DNA from: a virus | Virus record (IMG/VR): IMGVR_UViG_3300029319_000006 | Coordinates: 82,763-146,762 of that record | Strand: one strand, 5' to 3' | DNA: 64,000 bases | Shown: positions 1 to 44,288 of the stretch, piece by piece | Position numbering within the stretch: the first letter of the stretch is position 1 | How the letters are laid out: each line of letters starts with the position of its first letter | Translations under genes and position numbers: made by a program | Notes under the pieces: generated by a model | The model's database searches: none | The model's input: the letters and a program-made list of their open reading frames with translations, nothing else | What the model was told of the DNA's origin: nothing

Positions 1-319
1 TAACATCTGCACTAAAAGAAACTGTATCTGTGTCAGCATCACCTATTCTTAAGGCTCCTCCAACAACAACATCTCCTTGCATTCTTGCATCACCAACTAC
101 TCTTAATTTACCTCCAACTGTAACATTACCAGCAAATGCAGGTGAACTATCAGCAGCAGTAAATTTTCCTGCAACTTCATTTACAGCTCCTGTAATATTT
201 TTGGAAGTCGTTACTAGAGTAGATACATCACCAACTGAATCAATTAATTGATTGTGTCTTAATCTTTGTAAATTAAGATTGTCTGTAATATTAGTATGTG
301 GTATCTTAGAATTAGGCAT
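1..319 (-). CDS. Virion structural / tail fibre-like protein, N-terminal part (runs off the window start)
   Basis: Not in the ORF track. Manual translation from ATG at 319: MPNSKIPHTNITDNLNLQRLRHNQLIDSVGDVSTLVTTSKNITGAVNEV...GNVTVGGKLRVVGD. Fibre-like N-terminus and GxLxVxG repeats; baseplate context. Confidence 0.7.
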   Translation of the reverse strand, partial: MPNSKIPHTNITDNLNLQRLRHNQLIDSVGDVSTLVTTSKNITGAVNEVAGKFTAADSSPAFAGNVTVGGKLRVVGDARMQGDVVVGGALRIGDADTDTVSFSADV

Positions 320-6412: not shown

Positions 6413-7807
6413 TCAAAGTTGAACGACGAGTTTTATATCGTCTGTACTAGCAGTCGTTCGAGTTTGTGCAGAAGCATTATTAATAAAGAATATTTCACCT
6501 GAATATCTGTCTACATCAGGTCTTATGTTATGTTGTCCTGTTGCAATTGTTCTTGTACTACCCAATCCTTCAACAGTAATTGTTTCTCCTGATCTAAATG
6601 GAGTAAATCCTGATGCTTCATCTTGATGATACCATATTGTAGAATCTTGAATAAAATCTACCCAAGCCTTAGCATTACTGTCTCCTGTTATTTCAACATC
6701 ATTTGCAAAAGCAAAAGAACTAGAAATTGGTGATGTAACTCTAATTTTCTTTAAACAGTTTCCTGCTGTACCTTGAAACTTATTTCTAGATGCACTGTCT
6801 ACTAATGGATTTTTCCATAATGCTATTTGTCTATAATCATTATCAACTATCCAATTACCAGAAACATTTCCTTCTGGTTTAATATGAAACATCATAGCTG
6901 AAGCTCTTAAATCATTTATTGGATTAGCTCCAAGACCGTTACTATCGTGAGCAAAAACTGGAACAACAGTAGCGTTAGTTCCTCCAGGTGAAGTTATTCT
7001 TATATTAGCTTGTTTATAACCAGATCCTAAAAATGGTGATATGTCTGTGGTTCCAGAACTTTCACCAACTTCTACAGCTGTTATAACACCAGATCCTACA
7101 ACAGCGTATGCTTTGGCTCCATTTCCATCACCTACTACAGTCAAAGAAGTAGTTGCACTGTCATATCCAGATCCACCATTAGTTACTCTATATCCTAAGA
7201 TTTGGCCAGACACAGCAGCATTTTGAATTGTAAACTGAGCAAATCCAGGATCAGTTGCTGAAGCAGAATCAACTTTCTTTACAGGCATAAAATTAGATGT
7301 AGTAAAAAAGTTTGTATCAGCAGTAGAAATAGAATACATAAATTTCCAGATATATCCATCTGCTTCAATTGGTAATGATACATTAGTATGATCTGGTTTA
7401 ACAGTAGAAACTTGGTTGTTACCTAAAGAATCTTTACCCACTCTTAAACATACGTATACATTATTTTCTGCTGTTTTTACATAATAAGATGTAGCTGGAT
7501 GTCCTGTAGAATTATCATTATATTGTGCATATTGTGTATTAGTTGTCCAATCTTTGATAGGTACCACATGAGAAAATGCTTCAATAGCTTTTACAGACTG
7601 TAAATTATATCTAAACAATCTAGTTTCTCTATCTGTAACATTTGGTGTTGGTGCAACATCTGTATTTGCTATAGGATCCCATTGTTGTGATCTACCAACT
7701 GCTATATAGTAATTATTATTAGAATCACCAAGTTTTGTACCCGTCGCTTCATCAAACAATTGACTTAGAAATGTTCTTTTAATTTTATCTGTAATAATTG
7801 CTGTCAT
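6413..7807 (-). CDS. gp8: Baseplate wedge subunit gp8
   Basis: YYIAVGRSQ.W, NVYVCL, DGYIWKFMYSI, NDYRQIAL.KNP, C-terminal DDIKLVVQL. Confidence 0.9.
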   Translation of the reverse strand: MTAIITDKIKRTFLSQLFDEATGTKLGDSNNNYYIAVGRSQQWDPIANTDVAPTPNVTDRETRLFRYNLQSVKAIEAFSHVVPIKDWTTNTQYAQYNDNSTGHPATSYYVKTAENNVYVCLRVGKDSLGNNQVSTVKPDHTNVSLPIEADGYIWKFMYSISTADTNFFTTSNFMPVKKVDSASATDPGFAQFTIQNAAVSGQILGYRVTNGGSGYDSATTSLTVVGDGNGAKAYAVVGSGVITAVEVGESSGTTDISPFLGSGYKQANIRITSPGGTNATVVPVFAHDSNGLGANPINDLRASAMMFHIKPEGNVSGNWIVDNDYRQIALWKNPLVDSASRNKFQGTAGNCLKKIRVTSPISSSFAFANDVEITGDSNAKAWVDFIQDSTIWYHQDEASGFTPFRSGETITVEGLGSTRTIATGQHNIRPDVDRYSGEIFFINNASAQTRTTASTDDIKLVVQL

Positions 7808-7819
7808 AATTGTTTCCTA

Positions 7820-8818
7820 TTAAGATACTGTATGTCCTTCACCACCCATCACATACCAGTTTGTTCCGTCCCAGATAAGTGTTGCTGTATCGAATTGTTG
7901 AAATGTTACTCCTGTTGATCCTTGAGGGAATTGAGCTGCAGTGATACTTAATACTAAATCACCAGCACCTGATTGTCTTATTACATGCAAGTTAAGAGTT
8001 TTACTTGCAGGACCATTAGGTAATGTTACTGTACCAGCACCACCTTGTAATAATAATAAACTTTTTGTGAGTGATGCAGTATCACCATTTGATAATGTTT
8101 CTGAAGATAATCCATATTGATTTATGTTTACAATTCCTGTACCTTTGGAAGAAATATCTAAACCTATATTAGCGTCTGTGCTTCCAATAACTGATAAACT
8201 AGGTGTATTACCATTTGATACACCAGTAACTTTTATTCTATTTCTTGTGTTTCCTACATCAGTAAATGAAATAACTGGATTGCCTGTAGAATCAGAAAGA
8301 TGAGTTGTAATTTTAGGAGAGGATATGGTAGGTGAAGCTAAAGATTTATTTGTTAATGTTTGATTATGAGCTTCCATTACCATTACATCATTACTACCTA
8401 AAAGAGGTAAAACAACATTTCTATTTGCTGCCAGATTACTTGGTACAAAATTATAATGATGTGATGAATCTAAATCTTTTATTTTAAATCTATCAAATGT
8501 AGCACTATCTATAGATGGTTGAGTTAAAGTTTTATTAGTTAAAGTTTGAGATGCTGTATTTAATGTTACTTCACCAGATGCATTAGGAAAATCAATATTT
8601 CTTTCTGCAGTTGGATTTACATGACCAATCTTTGTTCTAAAAGATGCTCCAATGAAATCTACACCACTATCAGTAAGAGCAGATACACCAGCACCTCCTC
8701 CGCCAACTAATGTGTAAAGTTCAGTAAAATTTTCATTAATTTTAGTACCAGCAGTTCTTAACGTATCGCCTGTACCATCATTAGCTGAAGTACCAGTATT
8801 AATTGTTTGTCTTGCCAT
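7820..8818 (-). CDS. Baseplate wedge / tail fibre connector, gp9/gp10-like N-terminal domain
   Basis: N-terminal INTGTSANDGTGDTLRTAGTKINENFTELY signature; QTLTNKTL repeats; late promoter upstream. Confidence 0.8.
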   Translation of the reverse strand: MARQTINTGTSANDGTGDTLRTAGTKINENFTELYTLVGGGGAGVSALTDSGVDFIGASFRTKIGHVNPTAERNIDFPNASGEVTLNTASQTLTNKTLTQPSIDSATFDRFKIKDLDSSHHYNFVPSNLAANRNVVLPLLGSNDVMVMEAHNQTLTNKSLASPTISSPKITTHLSDSTGNPVISFTDVGNTRNRIKVTGVSNGNTPSLSVIGSTDANIGLDISSKGTGIVNINQYGLSSETLSNGDTASLTKSLLLLQGGAGTVTLPNGPASKTLNLHVIRQSGAGDLVLSITAAQFPQGSTGVTFQQFDTATLIWDGTNWYVMGGEGHTVS

Positions 8819-8842
8819 GTTTTATCTCTTTTTTCTTAACAT

Positions 8843-8850
8843 TATTTATA
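8843..8850 (-). promoter_or_regulatory. T4-type late promoter TATAAATA
   Basis: Exact TATAAATA in the intergenic gap about 25 nt upstream of the gp9/10-like start. Confidence 0.7.
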
Positions 8851-8859
8851 TGTGTAAAA

Positions 8860-9927
8860 TCAAGGTCCTGTTGGATAATGAGCAGAATCTGCACTATTTG
8901 AAGAAGAATCAAACAATGTCCTATATCTATGCTCATCAAATCTTGGAAGTAGAATAACACCTGATGGTGAATCTCTATCCATTCTAATTGCTGTTGCAGT
9001 TTCAGAATCATCCATTAAGAATGAATTAGGTGTAATCAGTTCTCTAAATGTTAGTGTAGCAGTACTATCCATTATAGTTGTAAGACTTCTTTCTATGTCT
9101 TTTTCTACATCTGCTCTAATCATACCAATAGTACCATCACCTCTTTGAATAAGTGTAGTATCTACACTACCAAGTAAATTCATATTAGCTATAGTTTCTG
9201 TAGAAGTAGTAAATACTGGTTTTGATCCTGGTCCTGATTCTCTTAATGATTGAATAACATTACCATTTACTAATTCTAAAACAATTTGAGCTGCTAGATG
9301 AGCTCCAGCTGGGTGAACAAATAATTTATAAGCATCTTCCCATTGTTGTACAGGAATTGCACTTTTTATGAGAATAGACATTACTTGAAATTGTCCATTA
9401 TCAGTTAAAAACTTTTGAGATTCTGATCCTAATACACCAGCAGCAGTTTTAATTTGCTGACCTGATGAATTAACACTATCTAAATTATAATCTATAGCAG
9501 GACCTACATGAAAAATATTTTCTTTTGGATAGATTACTTGAGGATCATCATTAAAAAATCCACGGAAGAATTGTTGTATACTATATTTGGTACCTTTAGA
9601 TCTATATAATTGATTTGAAAACTTTATTGCTTCTCTTTTATTTAAGAATCCTCCAAATGTAGCATTACCTAATAATAACTCATCTTCTAAAAATTTTAAT
9701 AAATCTTCTGGAACTTGAGTAGCGTCTCTACTTGAATATAAATCATGGATTTGACCAGAAGGTTTTCCAGATGAATCCATATATTCATAATATGCATCAA
9801 ACAATGCTTTTAACTTAGGATAATCAATACCAAAATACTCTGGTAGAATATTATCAACTTCTGCTCTTTGCAGATTTAATAATCTTCTATTAAGATCAGT
9901 AGTAGTTTTATCTTGTTCGTATTCCAT
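8860..9927 (-). CDS. Baseplate wedge initiator gp7-like (short form)
   Basis: LPEYF..DYP.L..LF.AYYEY, LYRSKGT.YSI..FFR.FF and K.FVHPAG motifs; directly downstream of gp6. Confidence 0.75.
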   Translation of the reverse strand: MEYEQDKTTTDLNRRLLNLQRAEVDNILPEYFGIDYPKLKALFDAYYEYMDSSGKPSGQIHDLYSSRDATQVPEDLLKFLEDELLLGNATFGGFLNKREAIKFSNQLYRSKGTKYSIQQFFRGFFNDDPQVIYPKENIFHVGPAIDYNLDSVNSSGQQIKTAAGVLGSESQKFLTDNGQFQVMSILIKSAIPVQQWEDAYKLFVHPAGAHLAAQIVLELVNGNVIQSLRESGPGSKPVFTTSTETIANMNLLGSVDTTLIQRGDGTIGMIRADVEKDIERSLTTIMDSTATLTFRELITPNSFLMDDSETATAIRMDRDSPSGVILLPRFDEHRYRTLFDSSSNSADSAHYPTGP

Positions 9928-11933
9928 TAATTTGCAGCATCAGTTGTTACAGGAGTTGTTACAGACAAAGTTGGATCAAATACAAATCTATCATTTCTTA
10001 CAGGAGCTAGCACACTTTGGTTAGCTGGAACTACAGACAATTTCAATTGAGTTTCACCACCTGATAATGCAGTTGGATTAAAAAATTGTATTGTAACAGT
10101 TCCATCATTAGCATTGTAACTTCCAATGTTATCTGTTATTACAACACCTCCTGCAGCTGTAACTATTTGTAAAGTATTAGAATTTAATAAATTTTTGATT
10201 AAACATAGTTGACTATTAAAAGTAAATTCTGTAGATGTTACTATAAATGTATCATTATCTGGAACAGCAATAGAAGCAGGAAATTGTAAAGTTTGACTTA
10301 TCCTGTTGACAGCTAAAGATAATTTGTTTATATTAAATGTTGTGCTGTTACTAGACAAATTATTATTTTGCATGTAAGTAGCTGCATCATTATATGCTTT
10401 ATTTGTAACAAAAGAAACTATTTTATCCAATTGAGTTGTTGTAACAGTTCCTGGACTAGTTAATAAGGATTTAATTGTTGCAATTAAGTTTGGAACTGAT
10501 GGTGCAAATCTTTGTTGCATTCTAACATTAGCTCTTGATGATAAAATAGCTGTAGAAGATTCATCAATTAAAGATAACATATTTGATCTTCTAAATGATT
10601 GATCAAATTTACCTGTATTATTTGAAAAATAATTTGCTACAGTAGTATCCACATTTGCTTGTACAGCATTCACTGTAAGATCAGTTAACTTAGGATTAAA
10701 TTGAAAAAATGTATCTACTTCAACAAATGTTGTTACTGGATCTACAAATCTTAGATTAAATGATACTACAGCTAATTGTGCAGCTAAATCTAAAATTCCT
10801 AATTTAGTTGCTGATATAGTATCATCAGATACTGAATCTTCAAATAATATAGAAACATATACAGCTCCAAATTCTTGTAATGCATTATCTTGACCACCCC
10901 AAGATGTTATATCACTTATCAAACCTCCATAATTTTTAAGAATCATAGCTGAATAATCAGCTGCAGTCACCATTCTATTTTGAGTAGCATATTGAAATGG
11001 AGCATTTTGTCTCATAGATTCAATGCTTTCCTTATCTTTACCACCAGCAGAATTGATAAATGTTGTTACATTTAATGTAGCTGATATAGTACCAGAATTG
11101 AAAGTAGCTTGGGGAGTAAAAACACTAGCTCCATTTGCTGCAGCACCTTTAGTAGAAAGATACTGTAATTCAATTCTATTTCCTGCACTTGGAGCAATAC
11201 CAAAAGTAGAACCATCACCAAAAGATAGTTCAAAGAATCCATTTGGAGATTCTTTTAATATATAAACTGTTGAATTAGCACTTAGACTTGTTGCCTTAGT
11301 TATATTTTGAAAGGTTGTAGATTGTGTTGATGTAGTACTATCAAATACTTTTACTGTTACAGATTCAGAATTCAAAGTTGTATCTGGAATAATATAAACA
11401 GGATTATCTTCATATTCTCCAACTAAAAATGTTTTAGTTTTTAAAGTACCTTCAGATATTGGAATTCTATTCAAACCATCAGAAGTTTTGAATTCATAAA
11501 AACCACTACCATTATCTGTAGCTTCAAATGGTTCAATAGTTTGGAATACATAACTTATATCATCTACTGTCGTATTAAATTTAGTATATGCTGGTAAACT
11601 TACTTTAGATGCTCTTCCTGCAGCAGTTGAATTGAATGTAAGTCTTACCGTTCCTATAGAAGATGCATCTGTATCAGGAATATAACCTATACCCTCAGCT
11701 AAAGAAACCATAGAAGATCTTAATTGAGCTGTTGGTAAATAAGATTCATTCAATGCAAAGTTTGCTATAAGACCATTTATGTGAGTATTATATGCCAGAA
11801 CATCTAAAATATTATTTAATCCTGAAGCCTCAAAATTATAATCTTTAAACTCTTCTTTATTTTCAAAGAAAGTTTTTAAATTACTTTTTATATTATTAAA
11901 GTCTAACGCTGTTGATCTTATTGTTGTCGCCAT
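9927..11933 (-). CDS. gp6: Baseplate wedge subunit gp6
   Basis: LDFNNIKSNLK...DYNFEASGL...LDVLAYNTH...NESYL.TAQLRSS; QNRMVTAADY. Confidence 0.95.
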   Translation of the reverse strand: MATTIRSTALDFNNIKSNLKTFFENKEEFKDYNFEASGLNNILDVLAYNTHINGLIANFALNESYLPTAQLRSSMVSLAEGIGYIPDTDASSIGTVRLTFNSTAAGRASKVSLPAYTKFNTTVDDISYVFQTIEPFEATDNGSGFYEFKTSDGLNRIPISEGTLKTKTFLVGEYEDNPVYIIPDTTLNSESVTVKVFDSTTSTQSTTFQNITKATSLSANSTVYILKESPNGFFELSFGDGSTFGIAPSAGNRIELQYLSTKGAAANGASVFTPQATFNSGTISATLNVTTFINSAGGKDKESIESMRQNAPFQYATQNRMVTAADYSAMILKNYGGLISDITSWGGQDNALQEFGAVYVSILFEDSVSDDTISATKLGILDLAAQLAVVSFNLRFVDPVTTFVEVDTFFQFNPKLTDLTVNAVQANVDTTVANYFSNNTGKFDQSFRRSNMLSLIDESSTAILSSRANVRMQQRFAPSVPNLIATIKSLLTSPGTVTTTQLDKIVSFVTNKAYNDAATYMQNNNLSSNSTTFNINKLSLAVNRISQTLQFPASIAVPDNDTFIVTSTEFTFNSQLCLIKNLLNSNTLQIVTAAGGVVITDNIGSYNANDGTVTIQFFNPTALSGGETQLKLSVVPANQSVLAPVRNDRFVFDPTLSVTTPVTTDAAN

Positions 11934-29710: not shown

Positions 29711-30433
29711 ATGTTATTTAAAACTATAATGATAAGAGTAAAAAATGATATAATTTCTGAATCTTATGCTGAATATTGTAAACAATCTTGGGAGTTTGCA
29801 AATATAAGATTTTATGATGCAGTTACTCCATCTCAAGTACATTTACAAGATGGTAAATTAAAATTTGGAAGAAAAAACAATAAAGATTTAACTCCTACAG
29901 AAAAGGCATGTTTTTATAGTCAGTACAATTTATGGAAAAAGTGTGCTAAAGAAAGAATACCTATATTAGTGTTGGAACATGATGCATATTGTACTAATAG
30001 ATCTGCAATTGAATTTAATCCTAATTTAGGTGTTCAGTTTTTTGGTCAACATGCTATGGAAGCTGTAATGTATCATCCAGATTTTTGTAATATAATAGTA
30101 GAACATTGTCAAGGTGATCATTGGGTTACAGGACCAATGAAATTAGTAGATGCATTGTTAGGATATTTCAATCCTGGAGCTCAAAGTAGATATGGAATTC
30201 CTCATGCAAGATATCAAGGAAGATTGGCACCAGTTAAATCTTGTATTGATGAGAGATATGGTACAACAGTAAAACATTTTAATGGTTCTACTACAGCAGA
30301 TAGAGTAAAAGGAGCAGATAGAGAATTATTTAAAATGATTGATCTTAGACCAACTAAAAGAAAAATGGAATTACGTTTAAGAGATGCAAAATTAGTAATT
30401 CCTTCTGAGCAGGAAGTAGTAACAGAAGATTAA
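29711..30433 (+). CDS. Glycosyltransferase family 25-like
   Basis: FYDAVTP, TEKACFYSQYNLWKKC....PILVLEHDA. Confidence 0.8.
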   Translation: MLFKTIMIRVKNDIISESYAEYCKQSWEFANIRFYDAVTPSQVHLQDGKLKFGRKNNKDLTPTEKACFYSQYNLWKKCAKERIPILVLEHDAYCTNRSAIEFNPNLGVQFFGQHAMEAVMYHPDFCNIIVEHCQGDHWVTGPMKLVDALLGYFNPGAQSRYGIPHARYQGRLAPVKSCIDERYGTTVKHFNGSTTADRVKGADRELFKMIDLRPTKRKMELRLRDAKLVIPSEQEVVTED

Positions 30434-33470: not shown

Positions 33471-33508
33471 CTTATCGCATATTAAAACACAAAAGTCAAC
33501 AGTTAATT
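33471..33508 (-). promoter_or_regulatory. Early sigma70-type promoter (AATTAACTG-TTGACT-17-GATAAG)
   Basis: -35 at 33494-33499, -10 at 33471-33476; ATG follows 5 nt later. Confidence 0.8.
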
Positions 33509-34129
33509 TTTAGTTCTTATTTCTACATTTTTTCCGACAGGAAATTTTATCTGGTTATGAGGATGATATAGTATCCACTGAACATTTTGAAACTCATTGA
33601 ATATTCCTTGCCAGATTGGTCTCCATCTATCATTAAGTCTAACATTATTAGTAGCACCTCGATCAGAGTTCAATACAAAGTCTGTATAACTTCTCAGATT
33701 CATATCAAACAAACTATCGAATCCGTACATATGAATTTCATCACATTTTAATTTATTAGCTGTATAATGAGCAGCCATATGTCCACAATTAAAGTTAGTA
33801 TATCCTTGACCTACTTGTCCTTCTTCACCTGGCATTCTTGCATATGGAGGTAACACAGTATAAAATTCTTTAATTTTATGACCAAATCTCATTTTAAAAT
33901 TACCTTGATTTTGATCATACCAAACTTTAGGTCTATATCCTAGAGTCCAATCATATTGAATTTGTACACTTCCCTCAGTTAATGCATTACACATTTTAAA
34001 ATCTACTATACATGAAGTATAAAAATTTAAATGAAAAGGAGGTTGATTACACGCTATATGTAAACCTCTAGCTGGTTTATACATTGCAACTTGATCACCA
34101 TTACCAATAATATGTGCTACTTTACTCAT
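33503..34129 (-). CDS. MptE-like / sialyltransferase-fold glycosyltransferase-like protein
   Basis: AHIIGNG, IACN, VD, N.G..A, EIHMYGFD motifs. Confidence 0.6.
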   Translation of the reverse strand: MSKVAHIIGNGDQVAMYKPARGLHIACNQPPFHLNFYTSCIVDFKMCNALTEGSVQIQYDWTLGYRPKVWYDQNQGNFKMRFGHKIKEFYTVLPPYARMPGEEGQVGQGYTNFNCGHMAAHYTANKLKCDEIHMYGFDSLFDMNLRSYTDFVLNSDRGATNNVRLNDRWRPIWQGIFNEFQNVQWILYHPHNQIKFPVGKNVEIRTKN

Positions 34130-34817
34130 TATGCCAATATTCTTTTATCCATTGTTGGGGTTCATATGTAGCCATTGGTGTTACTATAGTTTCTGTCATA
34201 GCTTGTATAATACTTGGTCTGCCATGAAAACAAATTATAGACACATTCTCTTTAGGAGGTCTTGGATACACATTGTACTTATATGATTTTAATTTACCTG
34301 GATATTTGTTTTGAAGTAATGTTCTATTATAAGGATTCATTTTACTACTAAGGTATTCTCCATCACCTCTAAATCTATCAATAACATGATCATATCCTAA
34401 TACAAATTCATTCCAAAGATAATTGTTAGGATTAAAGTCCCAAGACATTACTCCTGTTTGTAACACTCCTTTTAAATGAGGTTGATGAGCATTAACTGCT
34501 CCAACATCTTCTATACCCATAAACCAACTATCATCTGTTAATAACCAATCTAGGTTTCCTGTAATCAAAGTATCTAAATCCAAATACACCATTCTTTCAG
34601 AAGTTTTTTGAGCAGGATCAAACATTTGTAATTTATTCCACCAACCTTCATATCCAGGTCTAAGAACTTTTACATCTATTCCACTTATTGCTTTATCACT
34701 ATAACATACAAAATTATGATCTATTGTAGTGTTTCGTTTGACTGCAGCTTTTAAATTATAAACATAATCAATTGGAAATTTATTTCCCCAATAAACACAT
34801 GCTACTGTTGGTTTCAT
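34122..34817 (-). CDS. GT-A glycosyltransferase (GT8-like)
   Basis: CV.WG.KF..DYV.NL, GWWNKL.MF, YLDLD, GD..Y, IICFHG.P. Confidence 0.8.
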   Translation of the reverse strand: MKPTVACVYWGNKFPIDYVYNLKAAVKRNTTIDHNFVCYSDKAISGIDVKVLRPGYEGWWNKLQMFDPAQKTSERMVYLDLDTLITGNLDWLLTDDSWFMGIEDVGAVNAHQPHLKGVLQTGVMSWDFNPNNYLWNEFVLGYDHVIDRFRGDGEYLSSKMNPYNRTLLQNKYPGKLKSYKYNVYPRPPKENVSIICFHGRPSIIQAMTETIVTPMATYEPQQWIKEYWHNE

Positions 34818-35335
34818 TTTTTATCCTCCATAATTAAAGATACAATATCAATATCAATTGGTTTAGGTCTTGTATATTTTAAATCTATTATAGTACCAGC
34901 TCCTAAAACCTTAGCTCCTGTTTGTTGTATCAAAGATTTAGTAGCCATAATACTTCCGCCTGTTGCTACTAAATCATCTATAATTATACACCTACTTGTG
35001 TGTCCTAACAACCCTTTTTGTAATGTTAATTCTGATTGACCATATTCTAAATTATATTTTTGATATAGTAACTTACCTGGATAAGCTGAGTTTGGTTTTC
35101 GGACCATTAAAAATGGAATATCTTTTATCATAGATAATGCACTACCAACAACAAAACCTCTACTTTCAATACCAACTATATGAGTTGGTCCTTTAAATTT
35201 TTTTACTTTTTTAGCTAATTGGTAAATGCTATATCTGAATGCACCACTACTAAACAAACTATTCATATCATAAAAATTTACACCTTTGACAGGATAGTTA
35301 GGTATAGTTCTAATATAATCTAATATTAGTTTCAT
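34814..35335 (-). CDS. apt: Adenine phosphoribosyltransferase
   Basis: IR.IPNYP.KGV.F.D, GIESRGF, VRK, Y.LEYG, IIIDDLVATGGS. Confidence 0.92.
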   Translation of the reverse strand: MKLILDYIRTIPNYPVKGVNFYDMNSLFSSGAFRYSIYQLAKKVKKFKGPTHIVGIESRGFVVGSALSMIKDIPFLMVRKPNSAYPGKLLYQKYNLEYGQSELTLQKGLLGHTSRCIIIDDLVATGGSIMATKSLIQQTGAKVLGAGTIIDLKYTRPKPIDIDIVSLIMEDKK

Positions 35336-35979
35336 ACTTCCTCAATAATATAATTTTCATTATACATATGTTTTGCTAGACAACCATACTGTCTTTGAAT
35401 AGTAGAAAAATTTTCTTTTACTTCTACAGGCCATGGATAATATTCTTCTAACCAAGGAAATGTTTGTAAGTTTAAAAATATATCTGTAGGAGCTCCTCTA
35501 GTAATTCCTGTTTCTACCATTATTTTAGCTGCATTAGGTTTGACTCTATATGCATGAGCACCTGGAAAATATGGTTTAGATACAAGTCTATTTCTTCCTA
35601 AAGCCATAGGAGTGTTAAATTTACCATATGATGGTTTTCCAAAAGATATACAACCATTGTGTTCAATTGAAGGGATATTTTCCATTATAACTGCATCATG
35701 TTCAAATATAGTAACTTCTTCTCCAGATTCCATACTATACATCCATAAAGATAAATGAGAACAAAAAGCTGCCATAGCATTATGTTCTCTTGAATATTGA
35801 CTATTATTAAATTGTTCTGTGTTTATTTTATGTTCAGAAATAAAATCAAAACATGTATGAGGGGTGAATGCTTGATAATAATCTATTTCCAAACCAAACT
35901 TTTTTCCAGACTCTACACATCTATCAGCAGCTTGATGAGATTTATCATTATCAATTATAGTTATAACAAAGTGTTTCAT
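35332..35979 (-). CDS. Glycosyltransferase family 25-like
   Basis: FVITI, AFTP, AAFCSHLSLW, IFEHDA, PGAHAY.V.P.AAK. Confidence 0.85.
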   Translation of the reverse strand: MKHFVITIIDNDKSHQAADRCVESGKKFGLEIDYYQAFTPHTCFDFISEHKINTEQFNNSQYSREHNAMAAFCSHLSLWMYSMESGEEVTIFEHDAVIMENIPSIEHNGCISFGKPSYGKFNTPMALGRNRLVSKPYFPGAHAYRVKPNAAKIMVETGITRGAPTDIFLNLQTFPWLEEYYPWPVEVKENFSTIQRQYGCLAKHMYNENYIIEEV

Positions 35980-35981
35980 AA

Positions 35982-37106
35982 TTATCCTTGGGTAGTAGAA
36001 GCAACTCCTTGTAATGTTGTGTAGTATGGATAAACTACTCTCATTAAATGTCCACCCATCAATTGTTTACACATAAGAGCATCATTTGGCCACAATCCAA
36101 CATCATCAATTATTTCAAATAATTTTCTAGCAGGACCTGGGTTCATTAAATATGCTGAATTACCAGCTAAACCTTGTGGTACAGATTTATCATCCACCCA
36201 AGGTACTTCTCTATAAAAATGCTTAGGTTTGTTTTCTCCTGTTACACCATTTTGTAACATATTCATAGCATTATCTAAAGAGCTATTCATATTAGGATTA
36301 AAAAGTTTCTTGTCAATTTGACTAGAAGCTATTTTTTCTCCTTGACTGTTGTGATGTACTCGTTTCATTAAATTAGCTTCTACTATTTCATCACCTACAA
36401 CACTAGGTGAAAAAGCTCCACCCCAGCCATCAGGTATGATTTTATTATCTGCTATACTATTACCAGAATTAAGAACTTTTTCATAGTATAAGTGTGCCTT
36501 TCGTGTTGCTCCTAATGGATTATTCAACCCTATAACACAATTTCTTTTTTCCCAACCAGGTGGCATTTCTTGATAATCAAATTTTCTTGTAAAAATAGCA
36601 TCATGTTCCAATACCATAATTGGTGTGTTTATCATTAAACAGAATCTCCATACATTCATATGAGATAACAAACATGCAACTACTTTTTTTTGATCTTTTG
36701 CGCCATAAGCATGAACTTTCAAACCAGATCTTAAATCTATTTTCTGTGTCCCTGGTTTTACAGGCCATGTCCAATCAGTAATTTTTTTACTAAAACTTTG
36801 TAATGCAGGTTGTAAAGTTTCAGGAGTAACAGCTGGAATAATAAAAGGAGACAACTTAGAATTAGTAGCTTGTATTGATCTAATACATTTACGAGCAGCT
36901 GCAATACTATTTGTATTGTTTATGTCTGTAATGATACCAGCACATATTTCAGATTGAATTCTTCCATCTTGTGGACTAAGTCTTTCAAATTCAGGTACTA
37001 GATTTTTTTTAAATTGTTCTACAGTTTCAGCTTTTGATAAATTCTCACTTCGTCGAATTTTATCTTCATTTTCTCTAGCTGTTGCACCTTTTGTAACATC
37101 TACCAT
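35982..37106 (-). CDS. Glycosyltransferase family 25-like, with internal insertion
   Basis: AVTP, ACLLSHM..W, VLEHDAIF, GLAGNSAY...P..A..L, WPND; cATAAATA at 37125-37132 upstream. Confidence 0.85.
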   Translation of the reverse strand: MVDVTKGATARENEDKIRRSENLSKAETVEQFKKNLVPEFERLSPQDGRIQSEICAGIITDINNTNSIAAARKCIRSIQATNSKLSPFIIPAVTPETLQPALQSFSKKITDWTWPVKPGTQKIDLRSGLKVHAYGAKDQKKVVACLLSHMNVWRFCLMINTPIMVLEHDAIFTRKFDYQEMPPGWEKRNCVIGLNNPLGATRKAHLYYEKVLNSGNSIADNKIIPDGWGGAFSPSVVGDEIVEANLMKRVHHNSQGEKIASSQIDKKLFNPNMNSSLDNAMNMLQNGVTGENKPKHFYREVPWVDDKSVPQGLAGNSAYLMNPGPARKLFEIIDDVGLWPNDALMCKQLMGGHLMRVVYPYYTTLQGVASTTQG

Positions 37107-37127
37107 AAGTTTTCCTTTTTATTGTAT

Positions 37128-37841
37128 TTATGGTTCTATTAATCCACGTTCTACAAGTTCCTCATAATTTTTCATCTTTGCTCCATATACTCCTTGTGAA
37201 TCATCATAAGGTTTTTTTCTTATGTGAATCATATAACAATTTTCTACATTAGGTAAGTAATGACTATAACACCATTTTTCATCTAAACATTTATCGTATA
37301 TACTATAACCTAAATTTCCATGTACGGCAAGCATATGCATAATACCTTCTTCAACATATGGATGTGGACTTATTTGTCTCATCATTGCTCGAGTTACTGG
37401 ATTAATTTGAGCTCTAAATGCTTGTCTTACTTCTCTTGGTAATACATAACAAGCTCCAGACCATAATTGAACATCTCGACTAGTAAAACCTGGAAACAGT
37501 TGAACAAAGGCTGGATGTTGTCTATTTTTATGAACATCATCATAACATGCAACTCCTTTAGCTTCAAATACATTTTCTGTCATCCCTTTACGAACAAACA
37601 TATCTGAGTCTAACATAACAACAGTATCATATTCATCATATTCTTCATTAAGCATAGCAAGTTTTTGACATTGCATTCGAAGATCTTCCATAAATGGTTT
37701 ACCATCTAATAGTTTATATTCCGCACCTAAACTTTTTGCATACCTTTCTATATTAGCTACACTTTTTTCTACAATCGGATGTGAATTTTGACCCAAGTAT
37801 TTTTCATGTGGTTGAAAATGTTGAAGAATAATATTTTTCAT
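37128..37841 (-). CDS. GT-A glycosyltransferase-like (paralogue family)
   Basis: IILQH, YA..LGAEY, QKL..L...YD.YD.V.MLDSD. Confidence 0.7.
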   Translation of the reverse strand: MKNIILQHFQPHEKYLGQNSHPIVEKSVANIERYAKSLGAEYKLLDGKPFMEDLRMQCQKLAMLNEEYDEYDTVVMLDSDMFVRKGMTENVFEAKGVACYDDVHKNRQHPAFVQLFPGFTSRDVQLWSGACYVLPREVRQAFRAQINPVTRAMMRQISPHPYVEEGIMHMLAVHGNLGYSIYDKCLDEKWCYSHYLPNVENCYMIHIRKKPYDDSQGVYGAKMKNYEELVERGLIEP

Positions 37842-38521
37842 AATATTTCTAATCCATATATTTCTCTTACTACTTGAGGTATATTATTTTTTCTTGCATT
37901 ACAAAAGTGTAAAAGAGTAGCATCTTTATGAGCCTCTTCAGGTAAATCACAAAATCTATCATGTGGTAATTGTAATTCCTTATGATCTTTTAATATTCCA
38001 GTTATATGAAATAGATGGTGAGTCAATATCTCATCATTAGGTGGTAATCCATCAGAAGATTTGTTATTATCTATTATATCCTTTTTTAGAGCTTTTCTCA
38101 ACTCTTTTCTGTATTCTTTTTTTAATTTTACACAATTACCAAAGAACATAGGTTGACCTTTATGATATAAGGTAGGCCATTTTCTACCATTTTTACTAGC
38201 ATCTACTTTAGACATACCTTTTAAATGTAATCTACCAATACCTTCATAATTAAATATATTATCTATATTCTTTGTAGCAATCATATCCATATCTAATAAT
38301 AACACATCATCATATGAATCAAATTTTTGACTAAGTACATATAATTTTTGTAGTATTAACCAAGGCTTTTCTTGTTTCTGTTTTACCATATCCATCATTG
38401 GATAATCTTTTAGTAAAAGATATTCACTATTAATTGATTTAGCATATTTCCTTATAGTTTGTTCTGCCATTGATGTCCATTGAGGAAAATCACCACACCA
38501 ATGTTGTACAATTAAATTCAT
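37838..38521 (-). CDS. GT-A glycosyltransferase-like (paralogue family)
   Basis: LIVQHW.G, YA..I..EY, QKL..L...FD.YD.VLLLDMD, LLHF. Confidence 0.7.
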   Translation of the reverse strand: MNLIVQHWCGDFPQWTSMAEQTIRKYAKSINSEYLLLKDYPMMDMVKQKQEKPWLILQKLYVLSQKFDSYDDVLLLDMDMIATKNIDNIFNYEGIGRLHLKGMSKVDASKNGRKWPTLYHKGQPMFFGNCVKLKKEYRKELRKALKKDIIDNNKSSDGLPPNDEILTHHLFHITGILKDHKELQLPHDRFCDLPEEAHKDATLLHFCNARKNNIPQVVREIYGLEIL

Positions 38522-39117
38522 CTTGAAAACACCATCACATATCCTCCATGTCTTGCAAGACCTGGACCTTTGCAGATTGTATCTTTTAACTTAAATCCAT
38601 ATAATTTAATTATATCTGTAATTTCTGATCCTACAGCATTTAAAGGATCTTGTTGAGTAACACCTTTCATATTCTGATAATCAGACCATTCTATAGCTAA
38701 TATACCAAACTCTGAAACTTGATTACACCATGTCTGTAACGTAAGTTTTACATCATTAGTATGATCTAATGAATTAGAATAAACAATATCATGCTGGCCA
38801 ATCCATTCATCTTTTTGTTTATTAAAATCCCAAACTTCTGTCATAGGAGCATACTTAGCTTTTTCACAAATCTCTGTACCAACAATCTCACATTCTGGTA
38901 AATAAAAATTAAAATGTCTTTGTTCTTCTCCACTTCTTGTTCCATGACATAAGACACTTGATATATTAATATTATTTTGTTTTGTATATTCAACTATTTT
39001 TTCAATAGTAGCTTGTCTAACATAAACTGTTCTATTATATTTGAAATCTGTAGTCTTTTTTTGAGAATTTATATAATCATTATAATCTTGATATTCATAA
39101 CTTTTCATAATTTCCAT
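38518..39117 (-). CDS. SAM-dependent methyltransferase-like protein
   Basis: VLCHGTR.GEE, G.EI, DF, DIVYSNSLDH. Confidence 0.7.
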   Translation of the reverse strand: MEIMKSYEYQDYNDYINSQKKTTDFKYNRTVYVRQATIEKIVEYTKQNNINISSVLCHGTRSGEEQRHFNFYLPECEIVGTEICEKAKYAPMTEVWDFNKQKDEWIGQHDIVYSNSLDHTNDVKLTLQTWCNQVSEFGILAIEWSDYQNMKGVTQQDPLNAVGSEITDIIKLYGFKLKDTICKGPGLARHGGYVMVFSR

Positions 39118-39911
39118 TCCGTTACTGGTAAGTTAACAACTCTATCAATTTTTTCAGGGTCAAACTTATTAGCTCCTGCTAATTGTACATGAACAAAATT
39201 ACTTTGATCTCTAAGATCTACTACGGGTCTTGGATCTTTTGTATCTGGTTGATAATGTACACTACTGTTCCATTTATAATCCATTGTTATCCAATTCATT
39301 TTAGCTACTTCTAACATAGCATGTAGATATGGTTGATCACAAGTATAAAATTCTGGTAATCCTGAATTTTGAATCATAGAAGTATATAATTGAAATTTTA
39401 GAAATTTATATTTTGCTTTTAACATTCCAGGTTTAGAATAAACTACAACTCCTGAATTATATACTTTAGGTAAACCAGATTTTGTTCTTGGAAGTTTCAC
39501 GTTAAAGAATGCTTCTATAATTTTTACCCATCTTTCATCATTCATATTATTAATACCAGCAATAGTATGTTTAGTTCTTACATCAGGAGCATTCCATTCT
39601 TCACATATTCCTATATCAATTGGTGTTCCTTTAAATTGATCAAATATATTTTCTGTTAATCCTATTACTGGAAATACATCAGTATCTACATATAAAACAT
39701 AATCATAATGTTCAGACATATAATCATTAAATATAGGTTTAAATGATCCATAATGAGAGGAAAAAGAACCTAAATTAGTAACAAACTTAGGATTATGTTC
39801 GTATACATATTCAGAATTTATTTCCTCAGCATAACGTCTCATACATTTTACGCTATGTTCACTTTCGCTGGTTTCTTCACCATCTCTGTATTGATATATT
39901 AATGTCCTCAT
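39105..39911 (-). CDS. GT-A glycosyltransferase-like (paralogue family)
   Basis: LIYQY, YA..I..EY, YDYVLYVDTD, YNSGVV, DQ.YL, KWN, FVH. Confidence 0.75.
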   Translation of the reverse strand: MRTLIYQYRDGEETSESEHSVKCMRRYAEEINSEYVYEHNPKFVTNLGSFSSHYGSFKPIFNDYMSEHYDYVLYVDTDVFPVIGLTENIFDQFKGTPIDIGICEEWNAPDVRTKHTIAGINNMNDERWVKIIEAFFNVKLPRTKSGLPKVYNSGVVVYSKPGMLKAKYKFLKFQLYTSMIQNSGLPEFYTCDQPYLHAMLEVAKMNWITMDYKWNSSVHYQPDTKDPRPVVDLRDQSNFVHVQLAGANKFDPEKIDRVVNLPVTEWKL

Positions 39912-40603
39912 TAGAAACCCTTGTATCTTTTTTGATAATTATGTATTTGTTGAACTATATCTTTTTTAATAAAAACTGCATCAATTTGATTCCATATTCC
40001 TTTTCTTATTGCTACATGATGTACTCCTGATGGAACAAAATCATGTTCATATAATGTTTCTATATATTGATCAAAACGTGGAGCTCCTTTGTTATACCAC
40101 ATAATAGGCATTTCAGTTATAATAGCTTTTGTATGTTTCAATGCTTCTTTGCTACCATTAAATATATCTATTTCTGATCCTTGAGTATCTATTTTTATAA
40201 AATCAGGTTGAGGTAATTTGTTTTGTTTAATTAAACTATCTAAAGTAATAGTTGTTACATCTATACTATGATTTTCTAAGTAGTTATCAGTCATTTCTTG
40301 ATATACGCTGTTACCGGTAGTTTGTTCTCTATCATTATCTGATAAGTAAAATTTTACTTCTTTATCATCTTTATCAGACAACACAGCATATATTGAATGA
40401 CTATGGTTATCATCTAATAATTTATTTCCTGCAAAAGCCTCAATCAAGTAAAACATAGTTTCTCTTGGAAATTTATGTTTCCATTTTCTGTACCATTTTC
40501 CTTCATTAGCTCCTATGTCATACACATTCTTAAATGTTATTCCAGCATCTAACAATTCTTGAAGAATAAATTCTAATGTTCTTTCTGGGGATCCTGTAAT
40601 CAT
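39911..40603 (-). CDS. FkbM-family methyltransferase
   Basis: YDIGAN.G, IE, TLD, PDFIKIDTQGSE..I..G. Confidence 0.9.
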   Translation of the reverse strand: MITGSPERTLEFILQELLDAGITFKNVYDIGANEGKWYRKWKHKFPRETMFYLIEAFAGNKLLDDNHSHSIYAVLSDKDDKEVKFYLSDNDREQTTGNSVYQEMTDNYLENHSIDVTTITLDSLIKQNKLPQPDFIKIDTQGSEIDIFNGSKEALKHTKAIITEMPIMWYNKGAPRFDQYIETLYEHDFVPSGVHHVAIRKGIWNQIDAVFIKKDIVQQIHNYQKRYKGF

Positions 40604-40604
40604 T

Positions 40605-41747
40605 TTACCACTCCGGTGATGTTAGTATATTATCAGGATCTAAATTATCTTTCATCTTTTCAGCTATAAATTTAATATCATCTATAAGAGTATTTGAAAG
40701 AGTAATTGGTTCAAAACCTAAACTACGAAGACCTTGATTATCTACTTCTAATTCATTTTCTTTTAATTCTTTTCTTGGATTAGGTACATATTGAATATTC
40801 GCACCATATTTTTCAGCACATAATTCTGCTAATTCCTTTACATTTCTTACTTCAGCAACTTGATTAAATATTCTTACTTTATTTCCTTCAGGGATACTTT
40901 CTACTGCTAATTTTATACAATTAGCTGTATCTTGAATATGAATAAAAGCTCTAGTCTGACCTCCAGTTCCATAAACTGTTATATCATTACCAGTTGCTGC
41001 CTGAGAAATAAATCTATTTAATACTGTTCCATAGATACCATCATAATCAAATCTGTTCACTAATTTTGGATCTAACATAGTTTCTTCTGTTTGAGTTCCC
41101 CAACATATACCTTGATGAAGATCAGTAATTTTGATACCCCAGTTTTTATTATAGAACTGAAATAGGATTTGGTCAAGAGATTTTGTCATATGATAAACAC
41201 TACCAGGATTAGTTGGATAAAGTACATCAACATCTTTTTGTGTTGAATTAACTTTTATATTTAAATATCCTTCTGGTATTTTACCAAAATCTTTAGAATA
41301 TCCATATACACCCATAGTACCTAAATGAACTAAATGACATTCAGGAACAATATTAACAATAGCATTTAGAATATTATGTGTAGTCGTAATATTGTTTTCA
41401 ACAGTATATCTTCTATGCATTTCAGAAAGCATTGAATATGGAGCAGATCTTTGTTCTGCAAAATGAATTATAACTTCTGGTTTCATTTTTTGAACATAAT
41501 TCGTAAATCCTAAATAATTTATAGCAACATCAATCTGTCCAAATTTTAATGGCATACCATGTCTTAAAGCTGCATCTATTCTATTCTCCATTGATTCAAT
41601 ATTAGTAAGAGAATTACTATGTGTCTCTTTATCAATTTTCCTTCTGGAAAAATTATCTAATATGTGAACATCATGTCCAGCTTTAGCTAACTTCAATGAA
41701 GTTGGCCAACCACAAAAACCATCTCCTCCTAAAACTAAAATTCTCAT
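40605..41747 (-). CDS. sqdB: UDP-sulfoquinovose synthase
   Basis: GGDGFCGWPT, DN.SRR, HFAEQRSAPYSM, HLGTMGVYGY, IPEGY, YP..PGSVYH.TK, TDLHQGI.WG, NRFDYDG.YGTVLNRF. Confidence 0.95.
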   Translation of the reverse strand: MRILVLGGDGFCGWPTSLKLAKAGHDVHILDNFSRRKIDKETHSNSLTNIESMENRIDAALRHGMPLKFGQIDVAINYLGFTNYVQKMKPEVIIHFAEQRSAPYSMLSEMHRRYTVENNITTTHNILNAIVNIVPECHLVHLGTMGVYGYSKDFGKIPEGYLNIKVNSTQKDVDVLYPTNPGSVYHMTKSLDQILFQFYNKNWGIKITDLHQGICWGTQTEETMLDPKLVNRFDYDGIYGTVLNRFISQAATGNDITVYGTGGQTRAFIHIQDTANCIKLAVESIPEGNKVRIFNQVAEVRNVKELAELCAEKYGANIQYVPNPRKELKENELEVDNQGLRSLGFEPITLSNTLIDDIKFIAEKMKDNLDPDNILTSPEW

Positions 41748-41950
41748 TTTAAATCTGTACCTTCCTCATGGCATGATAATTGAATTGAATAATATTGATT
41801 ACTTTCATGCCAAGACCAATTATCTAAATTAGCCATTGCTTCACATTGTTCTAATGGCATAGGTTGATTAAGAACATATTGATTTCCTATATAAACCCAA
41901 TCCGTTCCTGTATTTCCCCATAAAGAAAATACTAATAAATATTTTACCAT
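41744..41950 (-). CDS. Small hypothetical protein with hydrophobic N-terminus and two Cys
   Basis: Operonic 68-aa ORF overlapping both neighbours. Confidence 0.55.
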   Translation of the reverse strand: MVKYLLVFSLWGNTGTDWVYIGNQYVLNQPMPLEQCEAMANLDNWSWHESNQYYSIQLSCHEEGTDLK

Positions 41951-42906
41951 TGATTGCTCCCATAATAATTTCTATACCATTGTACAAATTCTTTTACACC
42001 TATTTCAATAGGAGTTTTAGGATTATATCCTAACTGTCTTATTTTAGTTGTATCAGACCATGTTTCTTTAGCATCTGCATCATGTTTTGGTCTCATAGTT
42101 TTTGCAGATGTCTTACCTAATTCTTTTTCGATTATTTCTATAAAATCTAATAGCTGAACTTGTCTACCATTACCTATATTATATATTTCTCTTTTACTCA
42201 TGTTATTTGATATGATGTGTATACCGTCTACTATATCATCAATATATGTAAAATCTCTTTTCATATCTCCATGATTAAATACTTCAATAGGTTTATCATT
42301 AAGTATTTTATCAGTGAATCCAAATAAAGCCATATCAGGTCTACCCCATGGTCCATAAACTGTAAAGAACCTTAGACCTATTGCATTAGGTATTTTAGAT
42401 ATATGAAACATATGTTCATTCAATTGTTTAGTATATCCATAAGGACTTAGCTGAGGTCCTAACTTATCTGATTCTTTCCAAGGTAAAGGATTACCATGCA
42501 TAACACAAGATGTTGAAGCATAAATTACATTTTCAACATCATGTTTTTCTAATACTTGTATCAAATTTAAAGTACCAGTAACATTATTATCAACATACTC
42601 TTGAGCGTTATCCATAGAATATCTGACTCCAGCCATAGCTGCTAAATGTATAACCAAATGAGGTTTTATTTTTTTAATATATTTGTCTAAACCATGTAAA
42701 TCGTATAAGTCAAGATTCTTACATTTAATTTCATATTTTTCTTTTAAATATTTGGCTCTGTCTCTTTTCAATTTAGGATCATAATACATATTAAAATTAT
42801 CAAATCCATAAACTTCATATTCACCACTTTCTTCTAAATTAATAGCTGTATGAAATCCAATGAATCCAGCCATTCCTGTTATTACTACTTTAAGAGCCAT
42901 TAACAT
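41944..42906 (-). CDS. NAD-dependent epimerase, UDP-glucuronate 4-epimerase-like
   Basis: TG.AGFIG, YYDPKLK..R, HLAA.AGVRYS, YGYTK, LRFFTVYGPWGRPDMA. Confidence 0.92.
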   Translation of the reverse strand: MLMALKVVITGMAGFIGFHTAINLEESGEYEVYGFDNFNMYYDPKLKRDRAKYLKEKYEIKCKNLDLYDLHGLDKYIKKIKPHLVIHLAAMAGVRYSMDNAQEYVDNNVTGTLNLIQVLEKHDVENVIYASTSCVMHGNPLPWKESDKLGPQLSPYGYTKQLNEHMFHISKIPNAIGLRFFTVYGPWGRPDMALFGFTDKILNDKPIEVFNHGDMKRDFTYIDDIVDGIHIISNNMSKREIYNIGNGRQVQLLDFIEIIEKELGKTSAKTMRPKHDADAKETWSDTTKIRQLGYNPKTPIEIGVKEFVQWYRNYYGSNQW

Positions 42907-43678: not shown

Positions 43679-44288
43679 AATCTAAGCCTATAAAATGTCT
43701 TTTTGGAGTGTAATGTTCTATGGTATTTAGTCCTTCAATATTTACTTGTTCTATAAAGTAAAAATCATTCATTTCTTTTTGTTTTTTAGTATTCATAAAA
43801 TTAGCTATATGACCATCACTATTCATTTTTATTGTTTTACATATTGCATTGGAAATTAATCTTTCAGCAAAAAGAGGAGTAATATAATATCCAGATCCTA
43901 CTGATAGATCTTTAGTACCATCTTCTCTTCTTATATAAGATAAAATTTTATATCCTTCAAACAAAATATCTTGTTCTATTGGTTTTATTAATTTTGAATC
44001 GTGTTCAATAATTATCATAGGTCTCCATTCTCTAAGACATTTGCACCACAAATCAAAATGGCTATACCACACGGCTTTTTCAGTAGCAGAAAATTCTCTA
44101 TCTTTCCTTGCTACTGTGCCTTGTTTTAAACCAAATTTTAGTTGATTTCTATAAACTAAATCTTTAGCAGTAGTTGCTTCGTGATAAAATAAATCATAAT
44201 CTCTCCAACTGTGTTTTACATGATTCACATATAATTCAGAAAGAGGATGTTCTGACATCCTTATCATAAATATTTTAAATTTTTTCAC
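43641..44288 (-). CDS. Glycosyltransferase family 25-like
   Basis: EATT, TEKAVWYSHFDLW.KC, IIEHD, GYYITP..A..L. Confidence 0.8.
   Translation of the reverse strand: MKKFKIFMIRMSEHPLSELYVNHVKHSWRDYDLFYHEATTAKDLVYRNQLKFGLKQGTVARKDREFSATEKAVWYSHFDLWCKCLREWRPMIIIEHDSKLIKPIEQDILFEGYKILSYIRREDGTKDLSVGSGYYITPLFAERLISNAICKTIKMNSDGHIANFMNTKKQKEMNDFYFIEQVNIEGLNTIEHYTPKRHFIGLDYEDIDLPSVHGK

Follow-up and report, generated by a model that had tools for sequence, protein, structure and literature searches.

The DNA considered here, called the window below, is a stretch of 64,000 nucleotides comprising bases 82763-146762 of the 146,762-bp viral contig IMGVR_UViG_3300029319_000006 (about 31% guanine plus cytosine, GC). 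On its minus strand it encodes a baseplate of the T4 type, with a gp5-like hub, gp25, gp6, a gp7-like protein, a gp9/10-like protein, gp8 and DUF4815 proteins. The outer proteins of this baseplate are rich in the dipeptide Asp-Ser (DS). This enrichment, the motif in which it occurs and the genes that accompany it are the subject of what follows. Coordinates are those of the window unless a genome position is given, and DS counts are compared with the number expected.

Asp-Ser dipeptides in baseplate, neck and fibre proteins

Three minus-strand genes encode the outer baseplate proteins. The baseplate wedge protein gp8 (464 amino acids, aa; 6413..7807) matches phrog_438 (E 1e-61), and a profile of its homologues matches the T4 gp8 entries 1N7Z and 9F4A. 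The gp9/10-like baseplate/fibre connector (332 aa; 7820..8818) is recognised by PF07880 T4_gp9_10_N (E 3e-8), and the short gp7-like wedge protein (355 aa; 8860..9927) by PF23786 Baseplate_wedge (27.5 bits) and by phrog matches. A preliminary description of the window had counted DS by hand in these proteins, and its figures are exact. Ser follows 8 of the 31 Asp residues in gp8 (residues 28, 126, 180, 216, 288, 337, 376 and 388; 2.81 DS expected), 4 of the 18 in the gp9/10-like protein (1.90 expected) and 7 of the 28 in the gp7-like protein (2.45 expected). The clustering that it had noticed near the gp7-like C-terminus is also there: 5 of the 7 sites fall between residues 287 and 347, within the last 69 of 355. 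The inner parts of the baseplate, described as nearly free of DS, are indeed poor in it. For example, gp6, the inner wedge protein (9927..11933, minus strand; phrog_219, E 1e-118), is Ser-rich yet has 2 DS vs 3.7 expected, the gp5 piece has 1 vs 3.7, and several other inner proteins have 0-1. Counts in the DUF4815 pieces (8 vs 6.4 and 3 vs 2.65) are close to background, as had been stated.

Pooled, the three outer proteins contain 19 DS vs 7.15 expected (binomial p 7e-5). Among all 400 dipeptides DS is the most enriched in these proteins, and any dipeptide equally extreme was obtained in 2 of 300 per-protein shuffles. For the gp9/10-like protein alone the excess is not significant (p 0.11). 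The preliminary description had asked whether the enrichment would survive a correction for composition; it does. The post-hoc choice of these three proteins is made good by the independent agreement of the genome-wide ranking, of 120 gp8 homologues and of orthologues from 80 loci, all described below. The DS observation is real, strong and conserved in a clade.

The signal resides in the protein. The serines of DS sites are encoded by AGT (40), TCT (30) and TCA (18), with 46% AGY; because both Ser codon families occur, a DNA motif such as GANTC (from GAT-TCN) is not the source. The density of GANTC is also flat along the genome, and a DNA-level cause is ruled out. An artefact of composition or GC is ruled out as well, by the shuffles and by a 144-kb relative with 42% GC, genome G001. 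Its fibres contain 46 DS vs 16.5 (p 5e-11), 22 vs 7.2 and 23 vs 7.7; since the same excess is found at 42% GC, base composition is not the cause.

Over the whole genome DS is near expectation (213 vs 204), and the highest-ranked DS proteins all belong to the virion periphery. Of two fibres encoded upstream of the window, one of 1101 aa has 27 vs 10.3 (p 1.5e-6) and one of 655 aa has 14 vs 5.0; a 434-aa fibre-block protein has 7 vs 3.6. A 632-aa tail-fibre protein (genome 81183-83081, minus strand; phrog_9017 tail fibre), whose N-terminal part lies at 2..319 and which runs off the window start, has 10 vs 5.2. In the neck, the sheath stabiliser gp15 (genome 59746-60543, minus strand) has 5 vs 1.7; its C-terminus is an acidic tail, and 4 of its 5 DS are found within the final 41 residues. 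The tripeptide DS[AD] is a sharper statistic: the two upstream fibres have 14 vs 1.65 and 7 vs 0.75, and gp15 has 4 vs 0.23. A C-terminal 'DS tag' was also considered and rejected: DS counts in the last six residues equal expectation proteome-wide, and the C-terminal F/Y-D-S-A of gp7 is also found in the DS-poor phage Melnitz.

The motif and its distribution among relatives

The context of the dipeptide was pooled from 249 sites in 14 enriched proteins of four genomes. Position -1 is enriched in Phe (3.1x), Tyr (2.5x) and Ala, Ile or Val (1.6x). At position +2 Ala accounts for 39% of sites (4.4x) and Asp for 21% (2.7x), and Thr is depleted (0.5x). The element is a short linear motif, [F/Y/A/I/V]-D-S-[A/D]. 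Its second position is specific for Ser, in that Asp-Thr is not enriched. The 120 gp8 homologues (42-99% identity) contain 803 DS vs 359 expected and 265 Asp-Thr (DT) vs 432 (0.61x), and in the four near-invariant D-S columns of this set the Ser is never Thr. The 1101-aa fibre has 3 DT vs 7.8, and across the DS-enriched proteins of this genome DT is mostly depleted and never enriched.

Between gp8 orthologues at 40-50% identity, 41% of DS sites are retained, vs 21-24% for other dipeptides or Asp-X pairs. A further sixth of the sites reappear within three residues on either side, which brings retention to 58%. Selection thus acts on the sites, which can nevertheless shift position inside loops. 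The preliminary description had proposed mapping the sites on predicted structures, and this was done on an AlphaFold2 (AF2) model of gp8 with a predicted local distance difference test (pLDDT) score of 91.5. Every one of the 8 DS serines, and 7 of the 8 aspartates, falls in coil, for the most part shortly after a strand. The modelled coil location is weak evidence, since Asp and Ser favour coil anyway. A helix N-cap role is not supported by the gp8 model, in which no DS site lies directly before a helix. Internal fibre repeats are also rejected as the whole cause: recurring units give only 4-10 of about 90-100 DS sites per genome, and gp8 is without repeats. DS sites occur singly at scattered places in folded proteins, with no long tandem Ser-Asp repeats.

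Orthologue groups were assembled from 80 IMG/VR loci around gp8, in relatives at 35-57% identity. In the outer orthologues DS stands at 2.05x expectation in gp8 (n=79), 2.09x in gp9/10 (n=43; 160 vs 76.5) and 2.20x in the gp7-like protein (n=51; 278 vs 126.6). The DUF4815 orthologues are at 1.07x, and the inner ones at 0.50x (gp6, n=50), 0.37x (gp25) and 0.56x (gp5). The nearest named gp8 relatives are Phage C48C1, at 33% identity, and the SAR11 myophages Mosig and HTVC008M, the OM43 phage Melnitz and cyanomyoviruses, at 25-29%; closer relatives are found by the hundreds in metagenomes. The phages that carry the motif are marine, T4-like and uncultured, and form a large clade related to Kyanoviridae.

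Outside this clade the excess disappears. The T4 proteins gp34, gp37, gp12, gp9, gp10, gp7 and gp8 have no significant DS excess, and no protein with a significant excess was found in Syn9, HTVC008M, Mosig, Melnitz or the 131-kb sister contig G003. The genome-wide DS[AD] ratio is 0.68-1.11 in these five outgroups vs 2.1-3.5 in this genome, G001, G002 and G005. Because the same folds do without it in the outgroups, the excess is not a property of the folds. The DS-rich phages form a single large clade in the gp8 tree, and its sister lineages are DS-poor. DS density stays at 2-3x across lineages only 35% identical, despite turnover of the sites. The gp15 sequence reads A-D-S-D-F/Y-G-F in the clade, against D-D-D-F-G-F in Syn9, HTVC008M and Melnitz.

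The depletion in gp6 is also stronger within the DS-rich clade (0.45x, n=40) than in DS-poor relatives (0.81x, n=12; p 0.007). A general avoidance of DS in all other proteins was not seen (0.90 vs 0.78 in structural and 0.78 vs 0.83 in non-structural proteins); only gp6, gp25 and gp5 stand out.

A partial reversal has occurred in one branch. C48C1, a complete genome, groups within the clade as the sister of G001 in a tree built from 17 core proteins (supports 0.98-1.0). It has 3 DS vs 2.7 in gp8, 1 vs 2.0 in the gp7-like protein and 1 vs 1.5 in gp15, and three of its fibres are also without excess; all these proteins together have 33 vs 38. C48C1 is also without a tandem pair of glycosyltransferase genes of family GT25, described below. 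Its subclade, about 20 contigs, has ratios of 0.89x in gp8, 0.33x in the gp7-like protein and 0.82x in gp6. One member, G006, has kept the tandem and is intermediate in DS. Parts of C48C1 have another history. At 126305-131011 of that genome (L111:6305-11011) a gp9/10-like N terminus, 72-74% identical to this phage (7820-8818) and to G001, is fused to a 1568-aa fibre, while the gp8 and gp7-like proteins encoded on either side are only 26-38% identical. A 457-aa fibre of C48C1 is 73% identical to part of a G001 fibre. These identities suggest that a connector/fibre module was recently exchanged between sublineages.

Genes that accompany the motif

A glycan gene island, annotated by Pfam scans and running in a single transcriptional direction, occupies 33503..46760 on the minus strand. 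It contains a 208-aa open reading frame (ORF), a phosphoribosyltransferase, the GT25 tandem, more glycosyltransferase (GT)-like ORFs, an FkbM methyltransferase, two NAD epimerase/dehydratases, a GT8-like gene, another GT25-like gene and a radical SAM/SPASM enzyme. The phosphoribosyltransferase ORF, with a type I domain, lies at 34814-35335 on the minus strand, between the 208-aa ORF and the tandem.

The 208-aa ORF (33503..34129, minus strand) is a candidate sialyltransferase (GT42) or Maf-like transferase. It is present in all 6 motif-bearing genomes, the 68-kb contig G011 included, and in none of 5 outgroups, and it is the one gene with that pattern. It and a GT25 gene lie within 10 kb of each other in 72 of 78 and 77 of 80 loci. 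Its family is small, with 212 representatives among 1.84 billion proteins, and has near-invariant G-N-G-x-S, C-N and G-x-D-S blocks that resemble the sialyltransferase superfamily. PF01973 reaches only E 0.015-0.22, with a match in 1 of 5 and in 1 of 40 family members. A profile of 40 distant members matches eight Campylobacter Cst-II/Cst-I chains at E 0.017-0.065. From these similarities an assignment to the sialyltransferase/Maf group is plausible. In a separate set of IMG/VR contigs of 18-30 kb that carry distant 208-aa relatives (L377-L381), the pooled ORFs have DS at 1.3-1.4x and DS[AD] at about 2x.

The GT25 tandem consists of a GT25-like glycosyltransferase of 215 aa (35332..35979, minus strand; PF01755, 21.9 bits) and a GT25 glycosyltransferase of 374 aa (35982..37106, minus strand; PF01755, 39.1 bits); the curated cut-off of PF01755 is 24 bits. 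An AF2 model of the 215-aa protein (pLDDT 89.6) has GT25 enzymes as its top Foldseek matches at probability 1.0, namely a beta-1,4-galactosyltransferase (8XKD), Mimivirus R655 (9CRZ) and human COLGALT1 (9EVK), and its profile matches 8XC8 at E 2e-6. Adjacency of the pair is kept in G001, G002 and G006, and a homologue adjoins in 69 of 80 loci. An unbiased comparison of gene content left only four genes that G001 and G002 share and that six DS-poor genomes lack; the GT25 tandem makes up two of them. The phyletic pattern of the tandem is shared by two small ORFs of 86 aa and 147 aa, the latter at 55908..56351 on the minus strand with 3 DS vs 0.9.

No homologue of the 215-aa protein occurs among 50,697 phage records, and a search of 185,579 species genomes gave only two matches, both on contigs of metagenome-assembled genomes (MAGs). 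A cellular source of the gene was rejected, since both are probably phage contigs. They are GTDB FZLS01000043.1 (L268; a Rhodobacteraceae MAG) and CBFHZN010000007.1 (L269; a Microbacteriaceae MAG), and were probably mis-binned.

A separate GT25-like gene of 240 aa lies at 29711..30433 on the plus strand (PF01755, 35.5 bits). The sequence TATAAATA, which is like a T4 late promoter, occurs 22 nt upstream of it, at 29682-29689. The same box is found at 46836..46843 on the minus strand, 76 nt upstream of the first island gene, and also upstream of gp9/10 (8843-8850) and of the 632-aa fibre (416-423); its total count is not above shuffles. As late promoters for the island and the structural genes, the boxes are a lead only. 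Near the window end a sulfotransferase-like ORF (63104-63664, minus strand; PF03567, 29.8 bits) is present; of the genomes compared, G001 alone has a homologue.

The preliminary description had tied the motif to the glycosyltransferase cluster of this phage and had taken equal enrichment in phages without it as a refutation. Related phages lacking the clade-specific gene core inside the island (T4, Syn9, HTVC008M, Mosig, Melnitz and G003) have no enrichment. The cluster as a whole, on the other hand, is not the correlate: much of it persists in the DS-poor C48C1, and the DS-rich G011 has no GT25 gene in 68 kb. The G011 contig includes gp8, the baseplate genes and the island position, and has 8 DS vs 3.6 in gp8, 9 vs 2.4 in gp9/10, 9 vs 2.7 in the gp7-like protein and 0 vs 2.5 in gp6.

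Possible readings of the motif

The pattern is explained most economically by a factor reading the motif in trans, with a probability of roughly 0.7. Unrelated folds of a single clade acquired the excess together, and gp6 avoids the motif; both argue for a factor acting in trans, as does the decay of the excess in several vertically inherited proteins of the C48C1 subclade. The leading form of such a reading, with about an even chance of being right, is glycosylation by the phage's own enzymes. The motif would be displayed in exposed loops of the gp7-like protein, gp8, gp9/10, gp15, a 115-aa protein and the tail fibres, and a phage-encoded enzyme made late in infection would read it in the cytoplasm. 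The most likely chemistry would be O-glycosylation of the DS serine. In glycan loci a conserved enzyme generally reads the acceptor and variable enzymes build the glycan. On this ground the 208-aa sialyltransferase/Maf-like ORF would be a better candidate for the sequon reader than GT25. Extension of the glycan, or in some lineages its start, would fall to the GT25 tandem and to the island's lineage-variable transferases, and inner baseplate proteins such as gp6 would avoid the motif. What is observed is the enrichment, the Ser specificity, the loops, the conservation with local shifts, the clade restriction and the linked core; from these we infer a modification of the serine, its nature as a sugar and the enzyme that may read the motif. 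Put together as a clade-wide, cytoplasmic, sequon-directed O-glycosylation, in which a minimal Maf-like reader and GT25, GT8 and other transferases build a coat on the baseplate rim, neck and fibres and inner baseplate proteins have evolved to avoid the sequon, the proposal is a tentative one.

Several observations weigh against the glycosylation reading. The assignment of the 208-aa ORF rests on borderline values (E 0.017-0.22). C48C1 retains an intact-looking 208-aa ORF though most of its motif excess is gone, so that neither this ORF nor GT25 tracks the motif perfectly. In 44 loci with distant 208-aa relatives DS is at 1.05x, but these loci have almost no structural genes. G011 has no PF01755 match in its 68 kb though it is fully DS-rich, which also weakens the GT25 tandem as a necessary reader. 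A CMP-sugar synthetase (cytidine monophosphate; PF02348) and GT9 are both absent from the phage genome; supply by the host is possible, and the idea of a glycan like the core of lipopolysaccharide (LPS) was dropped on the same absences. The 1568-aa and 457-aa fibre proteins of C48C1 are still DS-rich (15 vs 3.2 and 5 vs 0.8), perhaps as a result of the module exchange. The association with the gene core is phylogenetically thin, with about one gain and one partial loss. Part of the DS signal is plainly structural, with some sites in fibre repeats and the gp7 F/Y-D-S-A present in Melnitz too.

A purely structural role could be extended to all sites. DS would then be a turn or strand-exit motif, the start of a fibre building block or a cation site in beta-rich proteins, and no enzyme would read it. 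The coil location of the sites, often 0-6 residues past a strand and with a hydrophobic residue at -1, is what such a role would give, as are the nearly invariant gp8 columns, the gp7 C-terminus common to the clade and DS-poor Melnitz, and the recurring fibre units [FYW]-D-S-x-x-G-x-hydrophobic and R-x-D-S-x-x-K-x-A-I. These units cover only the small share of sites given above, however, and the same folds in T4, Syn9, pelagimyophages and G003 manage without a DS excess. Simultaneous gain in unrelated folds, simultaneous decay in several vertically inherited proteins of the C48C1 subclade and extra gp6 depletion confined to the DS-rich clade are also poorly accounted for. In gp15, moreover, the Ser replaces an Asp of the older acidic D-D-D-F-G-F motif. 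As an account of the whole signal this explanation is considered unlikely.

Somewhat less probable again is a motif read in trans for a chemistry other than glycosylation, such as phosphorylation, sulfation, nucleotidylation or service as a docking site for a decoration or assembly protein. All of the evidence for a trans-acting reader applies equally here, and D-S-D in place of D-D-D in gp15 looks as if charge had been kept. The sulfotransferase-like ORF of the window and the 86-aa and 147-aa ORFs, with the phyletic pattern of the GT25 tandem, would offer candidates. Glycosyltransferases are nevertheless the only clade-specific enzymes with a recognisable fold; no kinase was seen, and the sulfotransferase homologue is limited to G001. 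The motif might finally be inherited baggage without present function, brought in with fibre and outer baseplate modules from a DS-rich donor. Fibre modules do move, and the 1568-aa and 457-aa proteins, the only DS[AD]-rich ones of C48C1, are 72-74% identical in part to DS-rich relatives. Such an origin is highly improbable for the clade as a whole, in which the gp8 tree agrees with the core tree and gp8 has kept the excess, the DS sites are under purifying selection, and density is maintained in distant lineages in spite of turnover.

Literature searches found no description of the motif, and the trans-acting reader was compared with known systems. The preliminary description had likened the motif to the sequon of the Bacteroidota. 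That O-glycosylation system acts on exported proteins by way of a lipid-linked glycan, and virions assemble in the cytoplasm. The nearest named gp8 relatives of this phage infect cyanobacteria, SAR11 and OM43. The general motif of the Bacteroidota is D-(S/T)-(A/I/L/V/M/T/S/C/G/F) (PMC8698959). As in the phage motif, Asp precedes the acceptor, Ala at +2 fits, and the sites are spread over many unrelated proteins. The Bacteroidota sequon, however, accepts Thr and does not include Asp in its +2 set, while the phage motif rejects Thr as acceptor (DT 0.6x), has Asp as the second commonest residue at +2 and is depleted in Thr there. The analogy is weak and the likeness superficial.

Closer functional precedents may be found, by analogy, in SdgA/SdgB, in flagellin transferases and in mycobacteriophages. 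For the cluster F1 mycobacteriophages Che8 and Rita, virion glycosylation encoded by the phage has been reported (Freeman et al. 2023, cited in PMC11256854). Common to both cases are glycosyltransferases of the phage itself, virion structural proteins made in the cytoplasm as proposed targets, and a proposed glycan coat. The present genome encodes PF01755 genes, a GT8-like gene, further GT25-like ORFs and a protein with a GT25 fold match. In the mycobacteriophages glycans have been seen experimentally on a siphovirus capsid; the system described here is known from sequence alone, and its putative targets, which a defined tripeptide marks, belong to a myovirus and lie in its neck, its fibres and the periphery of its baseplate. 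Glycans are reportedly also present on the mycobacteriophage tail tube.

SdgA and SdgB modify Ser in the Ser-Asp repeats of staphylococcal adhesins with O-linked N-acetylglucosamine, which protects against proteolysis (PMC3794999). These soluble transferases bind the protein directly and glycosylate Asp-flanked Ser, and D-S-D makes up 21% of the phage sites. Their targets are long tandem SD repeats in disordered regions, whereas the phage sites are isolated, lie in loops of folded proteins and prefer Ala at +2. No SdgB-like enzyme was identified in the phage. Soluble cytoplasmic O-glycosyltransferases also act on flagellins (PMC7591256). In the Maf/GT42 group (PF01973; Cst-II 1RO7) a cytoplasmic enzyme places a sugar on Ser/Thr of extracellular filament subunits, and the conserved blocks of the 208-aa family and its weak Cst-II match could point in this direction. 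The 208-aa ORF is, however, much smaller than Maf, the phage has no CMP-sugar pathway, and flagellin sites have no D-S-A/D consensus. The GT25 family includes the collagen hydroxylysine galactosyltransferase and Mimivirus R655, which glycosylate a protein hydroxyl (PMC9546862). The tandem (35332-37106) resembles the beta-1,4-galactosyltransferases of lipooligosaccharide, COLGALT1 and R655 in fold and Pfam family (8XKD, 9EVK, 9CRZ). The collagen enzymes differ in acting on hydroxylysine in X-Hyl-Gly, not on Ser, and the DS-rich G011 seems to be without GT25.

Should the serines prove to be modified, a tailed phage of Gram-negative marine hosts would encode a protein modification system that is defined by a sequon and acts on the receptor-binding periphery. 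Such a system would bear on host range and on protection of the virion from proteases and grazers. The reading of the 'auxiliary' sugar genes of marine phages, which are usually taken as remodelling host LPS, would also be affected. A compact enzyme with a three-residue tag would be of interest to glycoengineers. The DS[AD] observed/expected ratio in gp8 and fibres is a cheap sequence marker that can be used across thousands of metagenomic genomes.

Two further features of this genome may be mentioned. Fibre-block ORFs of 199, 228 and 268 aa have no Pfam match. Three small ORFs (228, 268 and 152 aa) inside the fibre block, at genome 72549-75134, are found in G001, G005, G006, G011 and C48C1 and are absent from five outgroups. 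The gp5-like hub (12407-14902, minus strand) has an M15 peptidase domain at residues 688-779, where T4 gp5 has a lysozyme domain.

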